Source of the DNA: a virus
DNA: 64,000 nt
Reading direction: 5' to 3' (one strand)
Virus record (IMG/VR): IMGVR_UViG_3300036770_003400
The translations under genes and the position numbers were made by a program. Positions 57,788 to 64,000 of this stretch are shown one piece after another (the first letter of the stretch is position 1; each line of letters opens with the position of its first letter). The notes beneath the pieces were generated by a model, which saw nothing but the letters and a program-made list of their open reading frames with translations, made no database searches and was not told the origin of the DNA.

Positions 57788-59102
57788 CCTAGGCTACAGG
57801 CCGCGTCCCTGGCAGCTTGAGTGTCACAAGCAGCGCAAGCGATTCACTGTCCTGGCGCTGCATCGCCGCGCCGGCAAGACGGAACTGGCGCTGATGGAGT
57901 TGATCGACAAGGCGCTCAAGTGCCGCAAGGAACTGGGCCTGTTCTTCTACGTCGCGCCGTTTCTAAAGCAGGCAAAGGCCATCGCTTGGCAGCGCCTGAA
58001 GACCAGGATAGAGCCGCTGCGGCAGGTCAATGCCGTGACGATCAGCGAGGTGGATCTGTCGGTCACGTTCCTGCACAACGGCGCAATGATCCGCGTGTTC
58101 GGGGCTGACAATCCGGATGCTGCGCGTGGTGTCCGCCTGGATGGCGTCGTGCTCGACGAGGTCGCTCAGATCAAGCCGGAGATCTGGCAAGACGTGCTTC
58201 AACCGGCGCTGTCAGACCGCCTGGGCTGGGCCATGATGATCGGCACACCCTCCGGCATCAACCTGTTCAGCGAGCTGTACTATCGGGCGCAGGATCTGCC
58301 GGACTGGCATGCCGCGAGGTACACGGTCAACGATACCTCGGCCATGGATCCGCAGGAGGTGGAGCGCCTCCAGCGAGACATGAGCGAGGCCAGCTTCGCG
58401 CGCGAGTATCTGTGCGACTTCAGCGCTGCCGGCGACGACCAGTTGATCCCGCTGGCCCTGGCCGAGGAGGCCGCGCGGCGGACGTACAGCAAGGACGCCA
58501 TTGAGCATGCGCCGACGATCCTCGGCGTGGATCCGGCCCGGTTTGGTGACGACCGCAGCGTCATCGTGCGCCGCCAGGGGCTGCAGATGTTCGCAGCGAC
58601 CGTCTACCGTGGCCTGGACAACATGGATCTGGCTGGCCGGGTGGCTGCGCAGATCATCGAGCATGAGCCGGATGCGGTGTTCATCGATTCCGGCGCCGGT
58701 GCCGGCGTCATCGACCGCCTGCGGCAGCTCGATCACGATGTCATCGAGGTTCCGTTCGGCGGGCGGGCCAATGCTGCCAACCTGTTCCTCAACCGCCGGG
58801 CCGAAATGTGGTGGTCCGTCCGCGAATGGCTGGAGCAAGGCGGGGCGATCCCGAATGACATCGGCCTGAAGCAGGAACTGGCCACGCCGATCTACTGGTA
58901 CGACCAGCAGGGGCGCCGGGTGCTTGAGCCGAAGGACCGCATCAAGGAGCGCTTGCAGGGCGGCGGGTCACCAGACATGGCCGACGCCCTGGCACTCACG
59001 TTTGCGCATCCTGTCGGCAAGCGCCTGCCACGCGACATCTACGAGCGGGTGCGGCGCGCCAAGTCCGAAGAGTACGACCCGTATCGGGGCGTGTTGCAGT
59101 AG
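57771..59102 (+). CDS. terL: terminase large subunit
   Basis: HRRAGKT, GVVLDE, GTP.G.N, GVDPARFGDD, SPDMADALALTF. Confidence 0.95.
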   Translation: MQKSIDLGYRPRPWQLECHKQRKRFTVLALHRRAGKTELALMELIDKALKCRKELGLFFYVAPFLKQAKAIAWQRLKTRIEPLRQVNAVTISEVDLSVTFLHNGAMIRVFGADNPDAARGVRLDGVVLDEVAQIKPEIWQDVLQPALSDRLGWAMMIGTPSGINLFSELYYRAQDLPDWHAARYTVNDTSAMDPQEVERLQRDMSEASFAREYLCDFSAAGDDQLIPLALAEEAARRTYSKDAIEHAPTILGVDPARFGDDRSVIVRRQGLQMFAATVYRGLDNMDLAGRVAAQIIEHEPDAVFIDSGAGAGVIDRLRQLDHDVIEVPFGGRANAANLFLNRRAEMWWSVREWLEQGGAIPNDIGLKQELATPIYWYDQQGRRVLEPKDRIKERLQGGGSPDMADALALTFAHPVGKRLPRDIYERVRRAKSEEYDPYRGVLQ

Positions 59103-59135
59103 GGTGCCCGTGATTGATGGGCGGTCGGGTATGTT
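59103..59135 (+). promoter_or_regulatory. phage B late promoter motif, copy 3
   Basis: GGTGCCCGTGA-N16-TATGTT before portal operon. Confidence 0.65.
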
Positions 59136-59161
59136 GGATGTAATGATCAGGAGATCAAACC

Positions 59162-59539
59162 ATGTTCGGATTTGACATCGGCGGTCTGCTTGGCGGTGCT
59201 ATCGGAGGCCTCATCGGCGGCATCATGGGTCCACTTGGCAGTCTGGCCGGCGGCATGAAGGGCTATGCAAAGCGGTCGGATGTCGGCCGGCAAATGAAGC
59301 ACCAGTTGCAGCAACAGGAAGCTGCGCAGCGCCAGACCCTGGCGGCATCGGAGCGGCAGCGGCAGGTCAGCGAGCAGGCCATGAACCGTGCCAACCAGCG
59401 TCAGCCCAATGTGCGCGGCATCATGGAAGGCGCGATGCAACAGGCTGCTGGTGGCCCGTCTGGCACGATGCTCACCGGGCCCTCCGGCATTGCGCCAGGA
59501 GATTTGAATTTAGGCAGAGCCACTCTTCTAGGCTCATAA
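59162..59539 (+). CDS. small virion protein (pre-portal)
   Basis: Gly-rich N-terminus; GTMLTGPSG...LGRATLLG. Confidence 0.65.
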   Translation: MFGFDIGGLLGGAIGGLIGGIMGPLGSLAGGMKGYAKRSDVGRQMKHQLQQQEAAQRQTLAASERQRQVSEQAMNRANQRQPNVRGIMEGAMQQAAGGPSGTMLTGPSGIAPGDLNLGRATLLGS

Positions 59540-59550
59540 ACAAGTGATTT

Positions 59551-59637
59551 TGCGCGCAGCTAGGTTAGCTCCCGAAAGCCGGTTTCCTGACCCGGTTGCT
59601 GCGTGCATTCATTTTGTCAGGTCGATCATTCAGGAGA
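59551..59637 (+). ncRNA. structured leader of HNH gene
   Basis: 10-bp outer stem; inner hairpin loop TTTCCTGAC complementary to SD region TCAGGAGA. Confidence 0.5.
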
Positions 59638-59642
59638 TCGAG

Positions 59643-60152
59643 ATGGCAGGAAAACTTAAAGACATTGCAGGCCAAAAATTCGGTCGTTTAACAGTTATTT
59701 ATAGAGTGCCTCATGACGGTACGGCAAGAGTGGCAAAATGGTTGTGCGTATGCGAATGCGGGCATGAACACATAGCGTTTGGCAATCATTTGCGTTCTGG
59801 TGTAACTACAGAATGTACTGAATGCTGGCGTAGCAAAAGACCGAATCGCTATGAAACAAAAACGAGGCTTTATGGGATTTGGACTGGCATGCGTAAACGA
59901 TGCCAGAATGAAGCCGTAGCTTCGTGGAAACATTACGGTGCAAAAGGCATCGCAGTGTGCGACGAATGGCAGGATTATCAAGCGTTCAAAGCGTGGGCGT
60001 TAACACATGGATATGCCAATGATTTGACGATTGAGCGAATCAATCCAAACATCGGATACATTCCATCAAATTGCGAATGGATTACCAAATCTGAAAACAG
60101 CAGACGTTGCTCAGTGTTGCGATGGGCGCGTGAAAAAGGAAAAGCAGCATGA
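59643..60152 (+). CDS. free-standing HNH homing-endonuclease-like protein
   Basis: GQKFGRLTV, WLCVCECG, LYGIW..M..RC, YG..GI.VC.EW, TIERIN...GY.PSNC.W; AT-rich. Confidence 0.8.
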   Translation: MAGKLKDIAGQKFGRLTVIYRVPHDGTARVAKWLCVCECGHEHIAFGNHLRSGVTTECTECWRSKRPNRYETKTRLYGIWTGMRKRCQNEAVASWKHYGAKGIAVCDEWQDYQAFKAWALTHGYANDLTIERINPNIGYIPSNCEWITKSENSRRCSVLRWAREKGKAA

Positions 60153-61873
60153 GCCAATTCCCACGCGACACGCAGTCATATTCAAAAACGCCCAAGCGCG
60201 ACAAGCTCTTCACCAGATGGGGCATGCTCAAGAGTGAGCGCGCTACCTTCTGGGCGCACTGGCAGGAACTGACCACCTATCTGCTGCCGCGCAACGGGCG
60301 TTACTTCCGCCAGGATCGCAACCGTGGCGAGCGCCGCCATAACTCGATCTACGACAACTCCGGTACCAGGGCGCTGCGTGTGCTCGGTGCCGGCATGATG
60401 GCCGGGGCGACCAGTCCTGCCAGACCCTGGTTCCGCCTCGGCACACCGGACCCGGAACTCAATGCCTTCCAGCCGGCGCGTCTCTGGCTAGACGATGTCG
60501 GCCGCAGGATGCAGGGCATCTTCCAGCGCTCGAACGCGTATCGCGCCTTGCATCAGATGTACGAGGAACTCGGGTGCTTCGGCACCGCGTCGTCGCTGCT
60601 GCTGCCGGACTACGACAACGTCATCCATCTGTATCCCTCGACAGTCGGCGAGTTCGCCGTGGCGACCGACTACCAGGGACATGTCACCACGATCTATCGC
60701 GAGTTCGAGAAGACCGTTGCCGAGTTGGTCTCTGAGTTCGGCCGCGAGAATTGCAGCCTGTCGGTGCGCAACCTGTACGACCGTGGCAATCTGGATTCGT
60801 GGGTGCCGATCATCCATGCTGTCGAGCCGCGCGCTGATCGCGATGTCCGCAAGCGGGACTCGCTGAACATGCCCTGGCTGTCCTGCTACTTCGAGGTCGG
60901 TGGCGAGCCGGACAAGTTCCTGCGTGAGTCTGGCTACAAGTCATTCCCCGCTCTGGTGCCGCGCTGGGCCGTGGCCGGCGGCGATGTCTACGGACACTCA
61001 CCCGGCATGGAAGCGCTCGGCGACATCAAGCAGCTCCAGCATGAGCAGCTACGCAAGGCGCAGGGCATCGACTACCAGACCAAGCCACCGCTGCAGGTGC
61101 CGGTCAGCATGAAGAACCGGGATGTCGAGACACTCCCTGGTGGCATCTCGTTCGTGGACATGAACAGCCCGTCTGGTGGCATCAAGACGGCGTTTGAGGT
61201 GCGGCTGGATCTCAACCATCTGCTGATGGACATCCAGGACGTGCGCGAGCGCATCCGTGGGGCGTTCTATGCCGACTTGTTCCTGATGCTGGCCAATGCG
61301 ACGGCTACGCGCATGACGGCGACCGAGGTTGCCGAGCGGCACGAAGAGAAGCTGCTGATGCTTGGCCCGGTGCTCGAGCGACTGCACAACGAGTTGCTCC
61401 AGCCGCTGATCGATACGACCTTCGAGCGCATGGTCGAGGCGAATCTGCTGCCGCCGCCGCCGCCAGAACTGGCCGGCATGGAGCTGCAGGTCGAGTTCGT
61501 TTCCATGCTGGCGCAGGCGCAGCGCGCGGTCGGCACAAACAGCGTGGACCGATTCGTGGGCAACCTGGGCGCCATCGCGCAGATGAAGCCAGATGTGCTT
61601 GACAAGTTCGACAGTGATGCCTGGGCAGATGCCTATGCCGACATGCTTGGAGTCGATCCGAAGATCATCGTTGCGAATGAGCAGGTCGCTGTCGTGCGGC
61701 AGGCTCGGGACCGTGCCATGGCTGCCCAGGCGGAAATGGCGGCCATGGAACAGCAGGCCAAGGTAGCGAAGGATCTAGCCGCCGCGCCGACCAATGAGCC
61801 CAATGTGCTCATGGATGTGATGAACATGTTCTCCGGCTACGGCAGCCCGTCGGCGGTCGAGGTCGGACAGTAA
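60149..61873 (+). CDS. portal (head-to-tail connector), T7/BPP-1 type
   Basis: TSPARPWF, RW....GDVYG.SPG..AL.DIK.LQ, MTATEV.ER.EEKL..LGPVLERL. Confidence 0.93.
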   Translation: MSQFPRDTQSYSKTPKRDKLFTRWGMLKSERATFWAHWQELTTYLLPRNGRYFRQDRNRGERRHNSIYDNSGTRALRVLGAGMMAGATSPARPWFRLGTPDPELNAFQPARLWLDDVGRRMQGIFQRSNAYRALHQMYEELGCFGTASSLLLPDYDNVIHLYPSTVGEFAVATDYQGHVTTIYREFEKTVAELVSEFGRENCSLSVRNLYDRGNLDSWVPIIHAVEPRADRDVRKRDSLNMPWLSCYFEVGGEPDKFLRESGYKSFPALVPRWAVAGGDVYGHSPGMEALGDIKQLQHEQLRKAQGIDYQTKPPLQVPVSMKNRDVETLPGGISFVDMNSPSGGIKTAFEVRLDLNHLLMDIQDVRERIRGAFYADLFLMLANATATRMTATEVAERHEEKLLMLGPVLERLHNELLQPLIDTTFERMVEANLLPPPPPELAGMELQVEFVSMLAQAQRAVGTNSVDRFVGNLGAIAQMKPDVLDKFDSDAWADAYADMLGVDPKIIVANEQVAVVRQARDRAMAAQAEMAAMEQQAKVAKDLAAAPTNEPNVLMDVMNMFSGYGSPSAVEVGQ

Positions 61874-61882
61874 GGGGGCGCC

Positions 61883-62011
61883 ATGCCAGCACGATCAGCA
61901 AAGCAAGCCGCGCTCATGCGCGCCGTCGCCCACAGTGCCAAGTTCGCCAAAAAGGTCGGCATCCCGCAGTCGGTCGGGCGCGAGTACAGCAAGAAGCCGA
62001 AGAAGAAATGA
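61883..62011 (+). CDS. small basic protein
   Basis: MPARSAKQAALMRAVAHSAKFAKKVGIPQSVGREY; not in ORF track, coupled to next gene. Confidence 0.65.
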   Translation: MPARSAKQAALMRAVAHSAKFAKKVGIPQSVGREYSKKPKKK

Positions 62012-62301
62012 TGCTGCTGCACCTCGGTGACCCCCCGGCTGGTTGGGAGCGGGTGCCGGGGTTTGAGGGGTTCATCCGCGAGATCGTCGTCGTCCCTTCG
62101 AAGGATGGCGAGCAGGGCCCACCTGGGCCGCAGGGTGAGCGTGGCGAACCTGGGCGCGATGCCGACCCGGAGCAGGTATTGGCGGTAGTGGCGCAGGCCG
62201 TCGATAAATATCGCGAGAAGGAGCTAACGCAAACTAAGGGAGTAATTGCGGCATTCTGGGGTAAATGGCAAAATAAAGCCTCCAACAAGGAGGCTTTATG
62301 A
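62008..62301 (+). CDS. collagen-like virion protein, N-terminal fragment
   Basis: GEQGPPGPQGERGEPGRD; last ~30 codons AT-rich. Confidence 0.6.
   Translation: MMLLHLGDPPAGWERVPGFEGFIREIVVVPSKDGEQGPPGPQGERGEPGRDADPEQVLAVVAQAVDKYREKELTQTKGVIAAFWGKWQNKASNKEAL
62273..62299 (+). promoter_or_regulatory. RBS/start-sequestering hairpin
   Basis: ATAAAGCCTCC-AACAA-GGAGGCTTTAT, perfect 11-bp stem covering GGAGG and AT of ATG. Confidence 0.8.
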
Positions 62302-62972
62302 ACTGGCAAAAGGTAAGCAAGCAACTACAGGCGGCCGACTATCCGTTTTTTGTGGTGCGGCGACTGGGCATATCGATGAGCGCAGAATTGGTCAGGATGT
62401 GCGACATCAGTGTCGGCGTGAGTCGCGCAGAGATTTATTGTGACCGCGCCAACAATGCCTATGGATTGAGGTTCGTAAACATCGTGACGCCAGATTCCTA
62501 TGTCATAACGTCGGATGGCGGCGGACGCAAAGCGGATTCCTCGAAGAAAACCAACACGGCATTTATTGCGTGCGGTCGTATCGTCAGTACGAATCCTGCC
62601 TTGTTGGCAGAGGCACAATCTGGCAAGAAAACACGATTGCCTGCATTGTTCGACAAAGACAATAGCATCGTGTACTTCAGAGTCGGGCCTACGTTCGAGC
62701 ACAAATACTCTGAGCGTCGTCCGCAAGGCAATGAGCGAGGCGTGTATCGCTACATGCTAGACGGTGAGGCGGTTTACATCGGGCAAGGCGCGCTGCAAGA
62801 ACGATTGGCTTCGAAGGAACGTGAAACCTGGAAGTATGACGACATCGAATACATGATTGTCGATGATGAGGAAAAGCGGTTTTCCGTTGAAGCTGGGTTG
62901 ATTGACGAAATTAGGCAAACCACTGGCCGGTTGCCTTTTTACAATCGTGTCGGAGGTCGTCGCATTGAATGA
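62298..62972 (+). CDS. GIY-YIG nuclease (C-terminal domain) with unknown N-terminal domain
   Basis: GVYRY...VYIGQG.LQERL...E..LI......PFYN; about 50% GC. Confidence 0.8.
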   Translation: MNWQKVSKQLQAADYPFFVVRRLGISMSAELVRMCDISVGVSRAEIYCDRANNAYGLRFVNIVTPDSYVITSDGGGRKADSSKKTNTAFIACGRIVSTNPALLAEAQSGKKTRLPALFDKDNSIVYFRVGPTFEHKYSERRPQGNERGVYRYMLDGEAVYIGQGALQERLASKERETWKYDDIEYMIVDDEEKRFSVEAGLIDEIRQTTGRLPFYNRVGGRRIE

Positions 62973-63435
62973 CCAGACACCGGGCGGCGTCCTTGCGGAA
63001 TGGTTGGTCGAGGCTGTTCCGTTACTCATCTCGGACGAAGTCTCCAAGCTGCCGAAGCCGAAGGATGGCCGCGACGGTCGTCCCGGCACGGACGGCAAGC
63101 CGGGGCGTGATGGCCAGGACGGCGCCCCTGGTGTCGGCATCGACGACATCAAGGCCTATGGCCAAGACATGCTGGTGGCGCTGTCTGACGGCACCGAAAA
63201 GCGGTTTCGTCTGCCGGGTGGCGGCAGTGCTGCATTCGGTGGTGGCGGTGGTGGTGGTGCATCGACCCTGGCGGCGCTCACCGATACCGATGTTGCCGGC
63301 GCTGTCGATGGCCAGAAGCTGATGTACGACGGCGGTCTCGCCAAGTGGGTGCCGGTGACGAGCGCGACTGTCACGGTGTCGGCGACGGCCCCGCTTAATC
63401 CCAGGGTCGGCGACCTCTGGATCGACATCTCATAG
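62973..63435 (+). CDS. collagen-like virion protein, C-terminal fragment (start unclear)
   Basis: PKPKDGRDGRPGTDGKPGRDGQDG; same frame as 62008; no clear start codon/RBS. Confidence 0.55.
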
Positions 63436-63444
63436 GAGTGACAA

Positions 63445-63846
63445 GTGGCAAACGCGATCTACCCTAAGTACAAGCAGGCGCTGCTTGATGCGTCAGCAAA
63501 CACGGACCTCAATGACGGCACGGTCAAAGTGGCGCTGGTGGATACCGGCACCTACACCTACAACAGCGCGCATGAGTTCTACAGCAGCCTGTCTGGCGTC
63601 GTCGGCACACCGCAGGAGATCCTGAATACGACCGTCACCGATGGCGTGTTCGATGGTGACAATGTCACCTTCACGGCTGTGTCTGGCAACAGCGTCGAGG
63701 CCCTAGTCATCTACATCGACACGGGCAACACTGGCACCTCGCGTCTAGTGGCGTACATTGATACCAGCGTGACGGGCCTGCCGGTCCCGCCGAATGGCGG
63801 GGACATTTCGATCACCTGGAACGCCAGCGGGATCTTCGCTCTTTGA
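63445..63846 (+). CDS. virion structural/accessory protein
   Basis: AGGAG RBS, GTG start; MANAIYPKYKQALL...PNGGDI.ITWNASGIF. Confidence 0.7.
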   Translation: MANAIYPKYKQALLDASANTDLNDGTVKVALVDTGTYTYNSAHEFYSSLSGVVGTPQEILNTTVTDGVFDGDNVTFTAVSGNSVEALVIYIDTGNTGTSRLVAYIDTSVTGLPVPPNGGDISITWNASGIFAL

Positions 63847-63849
63847 GTA

Positions 63850-64000
63850 ATGACGCGGTATTCAAACTGCCTCATCTTTGCGCTGATGCTCTGGCGACGC
63901 CAGGGAGGCTATTTGATTGTCCGCAAGAGCCGCTACACCTGGGTGCCGCACTTCATGTGGGCACGATCCATTGAGGGCCTCGACATCGTGGAATACAAAC
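63850..64000 (+). CDS. hypothetical protein, 3'-truncated
   Basis: MTRYSNCLIFALMLW... open to window end. Confidence 0.45.
   Translation, partial: MTRYSNCLIFALMLWRRQGGYLIVRKSRYTWVPHFMWARSIEGLDIVEYK

Follow-up and report, generated by a model that had tools for sequence, protein, structure and literature searches.

A free-standing GIY-YIG endonuclease cassette that probably split a collagen-like phage fibre gene into two translated pieces

Introduction

The Aeromonas phage Aeh1 reportedly carries mobE inside nrdA, leaving genes in pieces, as Friedrich et al. 2007 are said to have described. Here we analyze a 64,000-nucleotide stretch of viral DNA (IMG/VR virus record IMGVR_UViG_3300036770_003400; the window, meaning the whole stretch), in which an open reading frame (ORF) for a GIY-YIG endonuclease lies between two pieces of a collagen-like fibre gene. 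We consider it probable that a mobile cassette of ~0.9 kb carrying this free-standing endonuclease split the fibre gene, located after the portal gene, into two translated ORFs.

In Aeh1, insertion of mobE into nrdA gave rise to AT-rich tails that are required for assembly, and similar tails were predicted elsewhere (Crona et al., 2010, PMC3045599). That tails from an insert can neutralise a split is an idea based on this one phage (PMC3045599), and gene splitting by a free-standing homing endonuclease is still treated in the literature as rare, with ‘at least one instance’ (PMC10448857). The locus in the window closely resembles mobE/nrdA, a parallel already drawn in an initial reading of the DNA letters (the sequence-only reading). 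In both, a free-standing endonuclease gene splits its host gene into two translated ORFs and overlaps the downstream piece, and each junction extension is partly encoded by AT-rich insert DNA. A hairpin at the ribosome binding site of the endonuclease is also shared; in Aeh1 it regulates the enzyme together with a promoter, and the corresponding promoter here is putative. The enzyme families differ, MobE being an HNH enzyme and that of the window a GIY-YIG enzyme. The target in Aeh1 is an enzyme, whereas here it is a collagen-like fibre. The Aeh1 tails are a single case with no database matches, whereas the end-pieces described here are kept across eight N-fragment and ten C-fragment clusters and in two target genes. 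Aeh1 tails were shown to be essential for assembly, a role that is predicted for their equivalents in the window. On this comparison, the cassette is a homing-type free-standing endonuclease that makes a gene in pieces, with homing predicted.

The second group of related systems comprises T4 I-TevI and the free-standing Seg enzymes, with which the window enzyme shares the GIY-YIG catalytic fold and, by prediction, an intron-less or homing lifestyle (Edgell, Gibb and Belfort, 2010, PMC2988022). An arrangement of hairpin and promoter is known for I-TevI, segB and mobE: the hairpin sequesters the Shine-Dalgarno (SD) sequence, and the promoter is placed so that its transcripts miss the 5' arm (PMC2988022). 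The window has such a hairpin, and its putative promoter is a host-type extended -10 element, unlike a T4 late promoter. The domain order is reversed relative to I-TevI/Seg, with a DNA-binding-like domain first and the nuclease last. The Seg genes lie between genes, whereas the window nuclease lies inside one (PMC2988022). A literature search for work linking GIY-YIG with collagen-like phage genes found nothing relevant by title or abstract, and a search for a free-standing homing endonuclease splitting a tail fiber found nothing.

Results

A collagen-like fibre gene in two pieces

Two short ORFs flank the insert. The features of the two pieces are as follows.

62008..62301, plus strand, frame 1: N-fragment ORF of the collagen-like fibre gene, 97 amino acids
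N-fragment residues 1-31: N-domain
62101-62163, N-fragment residues 32-52: collagen run of seven G-x-y triplets
62164-62298, N-fragment residues 53-97: helical tail
62203..62975, no strand: low-GC core of the insert, from the composition profile and segment GC
62952..62956, plus strand: SD sequence GGAGG of the C-fragment, within the 3' end of the nuclease ORF, from sequence reading
62965..63435, plus strand, frame 1: C-fragment ORF, 156 amino acids from TTG 62965, with an alternative start at GTG 62947
62965-63060: C-fragment leader, which holds VLAEWLVEAVP
63061-63132: collagen run of eight G-x-y triplets in the C-fragment

The sequence-only reading described two collagen fragments sharing a frame on either side of AT-rich DNA, and both features are present. 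Both ORFs are in frame 1. GC content is 0.446 in 62206-62297 and 0.511 in the 224-residue ORF of the insert, compared to 0.69 (62008-62166) and 0.667 (63055-63435) in the flanks; for the low-GC core as a whole it is ~0.45-0.51, versus 0.61-0.69 around it. The N-fragment stop, TGA 62299-62301, overlaps the ATG of the nuclease. The frame of the C-fragment is open from 62902 and stops at 63435, and its C-terminal domain ends ...WIDIS. This fragment was previously thought to lack a clear start, which proved incorrect. GGAGG at 62952-62956 is followed after 8 nt by an in-frame TTG at 62965, overlapping the nuclease stop. The public gene call (P0001) starts at GTG 62947 instead.

A search with the C-piece retrieved single-chain relatives, P0002 (203 amino acids) and P0003 (207 amino acids), that align to both pieces. 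Their first ~50 residues are 76% and 65% identical to the N-piece, respectively, the former value applying to residues 1-54 of both proteins. Their last ~135 residues are 66% and 52% identical to the C-piece. A one-piece collagen-like gene is located directly 3' of the portal gene in three viral contigs (L084, L085 and L094). In a fourth, L082, it is located ~2.7 kb past the portal gene, with three other ORFs between. In L085 the unsplit gene is followed by a phrog_644 gene, the same as in the window. As the sequence-only reading proposed, the gene is interrupted by the insert; relatives without the nuclease are not likewise two separate genes, because the unsplit homologues span both pieces. 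These alignments indicate that the N- and C-pieces are parts of one collagen-like fibre protein, which is split here. PHROG matches are to tail-fibre families and are confined to their collagen repeats. The name ‘fibre’ is reasonable on this basis, and the role in the virion is putative.

Sequence variation indicates that purifying selection acts on both pieces. In near-identical contigs, 25 differences are listed for the two pieces, and 21 are synonymous when read in frame 1 (six of seven in the N-piece and 15 of 18 in the C-piece); these counts are a sample, with a further 265 table rows beyond those listed. Near-identical contigs from soil runs (X6 and X8) span 62112-62870 and 62842-63362, and those from a wastewater run (X5) span 62519-62794 and 62769-63677. 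The junction between the nuclease and the C-fragment is present in X5, X6 and X8, and that between the N-fragment and the nuclease in the soil contigs. The split arrangement is therefore real in at least two further studies. None of the listed runs is an RNA run. A freshwater run (X13) covers 61931-62175 and 63070 onward without the insert, a pattern indistinguishable from missing cover.

A window-type N-domain and collagen run are also found at the head of a 772-residue fibre in another contig (L233, 4004-6322), downstream of a window-type portal gene with one small ORF between. Distal parts of this fibre gene family are thus very variable.

The insert encodes a GIY-YIG nuclease

The insert is mostly occupied by a single ORF.

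62298..62972, plus strand: free-standing nuclease ORF, 224 amino acids
62298-62705, residues 1-136: N-terminal beta-rich domain
62706-62957, residues 137-220: GIY-YIG domain
62745 (Y150), 62775 (Y160), 62802 (R169), 62889 (E198) and 62943 (N216): catalytic-type residues

An exhaustive search identified 253 representative clusters of this nuclease, mostly of about 220 residues. Y150, Y160, G162, R169, E198, P213 and N216 are invariant in an alignment of 60 sequences. The GIY/YIG motif pair of the first beta-hairpin is represented by GVYRY at 148-152 and VYIGQG at 159-164. The family profile matches the UvrC GIY-YIG domain with E = 0.006, and the nuclease motifs line up with their counterparts in the N-terminal domain of UvrC; their assignment to named UvrC residues is our reading. 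An AlphaFold model of the nuclease has a predicted local distance difference test score (pLDDT) of 92.4. Residues 136-218 of it match GIY-YIG structures. Foldseek matched them to UvrC (1yd3/1ycz) with a probability of 1.00 and a root-mean-square deviation of 2.4-2.5 over 82-84 columns. VIA matches to the domain include 1ycz (Z 9.2), 2lwf (Z 9.2), T4 EndoII (2wsh, Z 7.2), the I-TevI catalytic domain (1ln0, Z 5.8) and Eco29kI (3mx4, Z 5.4). The identification of the ORF as a GIY-YIG protein with a C-terminal nuclease domain, made earlier from the letters, is thus borne out by the invariant residues, the UvrC profile and both structure searches. We conclude that the insert encodes a complete C-terminal GIY-YIG domain, which is nuclease-competent by its predicted active site.

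The N-terminal domain likely has a DNA-binding role, as judged from models. Folded alone, it has a pLDDT of 90.4. All its top structure matches are DNA-binding pseudobarrels, for the whole protein and the lone fold alike, and all are weak: VIA Z scores are 4.8-4.9 for MraZ, 3.7-3.8 for B3 and 2.8-2.9 for AbrB/SpoVT, below the reliable level of the tool. The match of the family profile to AbrB is also weak (E = 0.5).

The window nuclease is outside the MobE (HNH) and I-TevI/Seg (N-terminal GIY-YIG) families. Unlike I-TevI/Seg, it has no sequence-family membership by Pfam or PHROG matches.

Relatives of the nuclease and of the fibre pieces

Relatives of the nuclease are found in four viral contigs (L101, L102, L103 and L104). 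In L102 and L103, the order is portal gene, short collagen N-fragment, nuclease and a C-fragment ending ...WYDIS or ...WYDLN. In L101 (1579-3903), the nuclease, 39% identical to that of the window, lies between a 208-residue repeat protein and a 338-residue protein, both of which match tail-fibre PHROGs. In L101, another fibre gene appears to have been split by the cassette. The L104 nuclease (28% identical) is in another context. Nucleases of the split-fibre relatives are 33-39% identical to that of the window.

More distant members (L105-L113) stand alone in other contexts, and one of them, L112, adjoins by reading a PIN-like toxin-antitoxin pair.

Profiles were also built from the fibre pieces. 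The profile of three C-fragments retrieved 164 proteins. The best 120 of these include ten clusters of short C-fragments that bear a leader (P0001 and P0169-P0177; all read). The other 110 C-domain matches among those 120 are 77-192 residues long, all but one at least 137, and most are flagged for collagen by Pfam. Eight of the 110 were read: seven are one-piece proteins and P0244 (77 residues) is a bare C-terminal piece. With the profile of three N-fragments, eight of 39 proteins (P0287-P0294) are short N-fragments of the split type.

Predicted control of nuclease expression

A hairpin and a promoter-like element are located upstream of the nuclease start.

62246..62251, plus strand: weak -35-like hexamer TTGCGG, three of six matches, from sequence reading
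62266..62274, plus strand: extended -10-like motif TGgCAAAAT, from sequence reading
62273..62299, plus strand: RNA hairpin of 11 bp with loop AACAA, 62273-62283 pairing perfectly with 62289-62299

The perfect hairpin over GGAGG and the start codon is present as first described. Its 3' arm holds the nuclease SD sequence GGAGG (62289-62293) together with the A and T of ATG 62298. For the 91-nt fold, the z score is -3.17, and two of 200 shuffled sequences are equally stable. Hairpins sequestering the SD sequence are found in all four fibre-borne cassettes (window, L101, L102 and L103) with different arm sequences, including GCCTCC/GGAGGC, GGCTCT/AGAGCT and GGTTCT/AGAACC.

The proposed promoter fared less evenly. 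Both hexamers are found where they had been placed and the extended -10 motif is conserved. However, the -35 hexamer is weak, the two hexamers together match seven of 12 consensus positions, and a sigma-70 scan of 61700-63600 listed no promoter. The pattern TGNYARRAT occurs at most 70 nt upstream of the nuclease start in five of ten distinct loci, L109 having been dropped as a near-copy of L108. The background is 0.012 per locus (binomial 7e-8). This enrichment is tempered by the origin of the pattern, which was drawn from three of the five positive loci; two of the seven others carry it. In the window, L102 and L103, 23-24 nt separate the end of the motif from the ATG. A transcript starting ~7 nt past it, near 62281, would lie inside the 5' arm of the hairpin. 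The hairpin and promoter logic of I-TevI and mobE, which the sequence-only reading invoked, is backed by the recurrence of both elements in related cassettes, and promoter function is predicted.

Several distant members also show upstream pairing with the SD sequence (L106 and L108/L109), and L105 and L111 carry a TGGTAnnAT motif. A DNA pattern scan for the promoter/hairpin motif returned 118 loci. None has a relative of the nuclease, so these matches are attributed to chance. A function of the hairpin as a terminator was rejected, since its stem is not followed by a T-run in L102 or L103.

These elements suggest how the nuclease could be regulated. On read-through transcripts of the structural operon, the hairpin would hide the nuclease ribosome site. 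The conserved extended -10 promoter would start transcripts inside the 5' arm and free that site. The hairpin of the window could also be opened by ribosomes that terminate the N-fragment at the overlapping ATGA. The C-fragment would be translated from TTG 62965, helped by the GGAGG 8 nt upstream; its start overlaps the nuclease stop in all four loci.

The contribution of terminating ribosomes might instead be the major one. The nuclease would then be translated mainly by coupling, with N-fragment ribosomes melting the hairpin and reinitiating at ATGA, and there would be no internal promoter. Conservation of the motif would reflect either a binding site or coding, namely of the W-x-K-W with which the tail ends. 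We regard this as a realistic account that nevertheless falls somewhat short of even chances. The N-fragment frame of the window spans the entire hairpin and closes with a TGA that shares bases with the ATG; in L103 the N-fragment ORF extends over the nuclease start, with an overlap of 40 nt. The motif in L102 encodes W-D-K-W-stop, and the empty sigma-70 scan also favors coupling. However, coupling cannot be the general rule, as the N-fragment ends ahead of the hairpin in L102 and 54 nt upstream of the ATG in L101. The motif in L103 is in a different frame from that in L102, which points to a constraint at the DNA level. It is also found upstream of the distant L105 and L111 nucleases, neither of which has a fibre fragment.

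End-pieces shared by split alleles

The N-fragment tail and the C-fragment leader are shared among split alleles. A leader of the form M..T..G.FAEWL..QIP.Y/F.., often ending IPKPKDG, is found in all ten split C-fragment clusters (alignment A9), with its T, W and P nearly invariant. The downstream protein of L101 shares a similar leader (AKWL..LPEII; alignment A9). All eight N-fragment clusters have a helical tail after 3-7 collagen triplets. These tails align with each other and with the related tail of L101 (GEVDYKEV...; alignment A10). In five of the eight, the tail ends (T)W-x-(K/T)-W directly before the stop, a recurrence that would also fit conservation for coding under coupling. The window tail has F-W-G-K-W followed by ten more residues, and the tails of P0288 and P0291 end differently.

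P0291, on a 39-kb contig, is a window-type N-fragment of 95 residues whose first 50 are nearly identical to those of the window. It keeps the early tail (DPEQ...YREKEL) and then diverges without W-x-K-W.

The tail and leader are absent from the fourteen unsplit proteins read (among them P0002, P0003, P0009, P0010, P0016, P0184, P0228, P0238, P0247, P0259, P0264 and P0298) and from four translated loci (L082, L084, L085 and L094). An echo between the junction texts had been noted at the outset, and both texts are present, PEQVLAVVAQAV in the N-piece and PGGVLAEWLVEAV in the C-piece. They are not a simple target duplication. The echo consists of two helical units, because both are shared by split alleles and absent from the unsplit ones read. 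AT-rich insert DNA encodes the distal tail half and the opening codons of the leader; the remainder has host-like GC. Whatever their origin, the alignments indicate that the end-pieces go along with the nuclease, also where its target is another fibre gene. We suggest by analogy that the tail and the FAEWL..IP leader travel with the cassette and would let the pieces work as a two-chain fibre. This adaptor role is predicted. A complex prediction with three N-fragment tails and three C-fragment leaders gave a score of 0.02.

The same cassette may have brought the end-pieces along passively. Tail and leader would then be mere co-converted remnants of a donor fibre gene with natural helix interruptions, having no role in assembly, and the two pieces would act independently or only one would matter. 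Some observations favor this, and they count against an adaptor role. Similar helices (DEQI..A.AWL..., then PKDG) separate the collagen runs of the unsplit collagen-like proteins P0004 and P0006, so the tails may be such remnants. The outer parts of both window helices have host-like GC (0.667 and 0.611), and the charges of tail and leader show no consistent complementarity. However, the leader is kept in all ten split C-fragment clusters and in L101, whose target differs, and it persists through divergence of the nuclease to 33% identity. The closest unsplit relatives read (P0002 and P0010) lack it. We find the passive origin possible but rather doubtful.

Split and unsplit alleles are interleaved

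The same gene is split in the window, L102 and L103 and unsplit in L082, L084, L085 and L094. Relatedness does not follow this division. The C-domains of the split L102 and L103 genes are 25-28% identical to that of the window, versus 66% for the unsplit P0002. Split L103 and unsplit P0010 are 61% identical. By eye, split P0172 is close to unsplit P0010, and split P0177 to unsplit P0264. Sequence comparison thus indicates that close relatives include both split and unsplit alleles, in an interleaved pattern. The window portal has no significant similarity to the portals of L102 and L103.

A cassette that spreads by intron-less homing could produce this pattern. The enzyme would cut cassette-free alleles, and repair from a cassette-bearing genome would copy the cassette. 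The nuclease might instead be a resident phage enzyme, active in exclusion, defence or counter-defence, or DNA processing and inherited vertically in a gene split long ago. Distant relatives do stand alone elsewhere, some beside toxin-antitoxin-like genes, and no joint skipping the insert was reported in the sequencing-run contigs. The interleaving argues against a resident enzyme, as do the occurrence of the same cassette in two fibre genes and on phage backbones unrelated to each other, the foreign composition of its core and the lack of a PADLOC match. We judge it improbable.

Restoration of a single fibre chain by RNA splicing, ribosomal bypassing or protein splicing is consistent with the shared frame of the two pieces but can be practically dismissed: Rfam has no intron at E <= 1 in 59000-64000, in line with the sequence-only reading, to which no group I core was evident, the non-nuclease insert is <100 nt on the 5' side and absent on the 3' side, leaving no room for such a core outside the ORF, the gap of ~660 nt greatly exceeds the 50 nt bypassed in T4, the junction extensions of 45 and 32 residues and both flanks have no Hint/intein match in Pfam, and the C-piece, like the nuclease ORF with its SD sequence and ATG, has its own SD sequence and start. 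The sequence-only reading had left bypassing, splicing and two-chain assembly side by side; the first two are very unlikely, and two-chain expression is supported.

Two further systems are relevant to this point. Fractured genes with split inteins also consist of a two-ORF host gene with an endonuclease between, and occur in metagenomes (Dassa et al., 2009, PMC2677866). Unlike these, the window has only short extensions with no intein match, so protein splicing is not expected, and the nuclease family differs (PMC2677866). In T4, the mobA cassette that splits gene 60 and gene 39 carries mitigating sequence, as proposed here (bioRxiv 10.1101/2022.08.31.505936); this split is also discussed in PMC3045599. 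Unlike mobA, the window has no 50-nt bypass element. Mitigation would be provided by protein end-pieces and a new start.

Genomic context

Two genes frame the split gene.

60149..61873, plus strand: portal gene (PF12236, E = 2.5e-185)
63445..63846, plus strand: conserved downstream neighbour, 133 amino acids, phrog_644 (function unknown)

The fibre gene is downstream of the portal gene, after a 42-residue ORF at 61883-62011. This ORF is found in 24 of 80 portal-related loci. None of the 80 has a relative of either fragment, the nuclease, the 133-residue neighbour or the HNH ORF described below. Searches of a cultured phage collection with the region, the C-fragment and the nuclease (blastn and tblastn) gave one 80-bp match or none, and a scan of a genome collection gave a single irrelevant 21-residue match.

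A second low-GC insert is found at 59544-60152 (GC 0.46 versus about 0.63). It encodes an HNH endonuclease (phrog_374, E = 3.8e-50) between a 125-residue ORF and the portal gene; in L082 these two neighbours adjoin each other. Endonuclease-type inserts thus lie on both sides of the portal gene, HNH on the 5' side and GIY-YIG on the 3' side. An Rfam int-alpA RNA match (59553-59621; 34.8 bits versus a gathering threshold of 35.8, E = 0.00015) is located at the 5' edge of the HNH insert, inside the opening codons of the listed ORF. GC content is mostly 0.65-0.76 for ORFs in the first ~24 kb of the window and about 0.55-0.65 in the remainder (24000-64000). Two distinct genomic contexts may meet in the window.

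Discussion

Our analysis points to a free-standing endonuclease cassette as the probable cause of the split. Certain observations weigh against this. The 224-residue ORF is unmatched in Pfam, PHROGs, NCBIfam and PADLOC. Cassettes are known as DNA in only four cases, and the insertion site was placed by alignment to unsplit homologues at the protein level only. Ten distant-relative metagenome loci have nucleases 24-45% identical over the best matching segment, and in none of the nine examined (L114 was left out) is a fibre gene split. The wider nuclease family is therefore not tied to a fibre target.

A bolder proposal, which we put forward tentatively, is that the cassette is a portable split-and-rescue module. 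The tail, usually ending W-x-K-W, and the leader with its own start would be transferable adaptors that re-join any cut trimeric fibre. If this is true, one endonuclease lineage could cheaply colonise different fibre genes on unrelated backbones. The single Aeh1 case of tails as an antidote would then become a heritable, element-encoded mechanism.

For annotation, the finding means that the two short ORFs belong together as a single split fibre gene. A GIY-YIG lineage that is absent from catalogues and has its domains in reverse order appears to split a structural fibre gene repeatedly, with the same end-pieces and hairpin. This provides a comparative handle on whether such tails are part of the mobile element, on how a toxic nuclease stays silent inside a late operon, and on how selfish elements reshape phage fibre genes.

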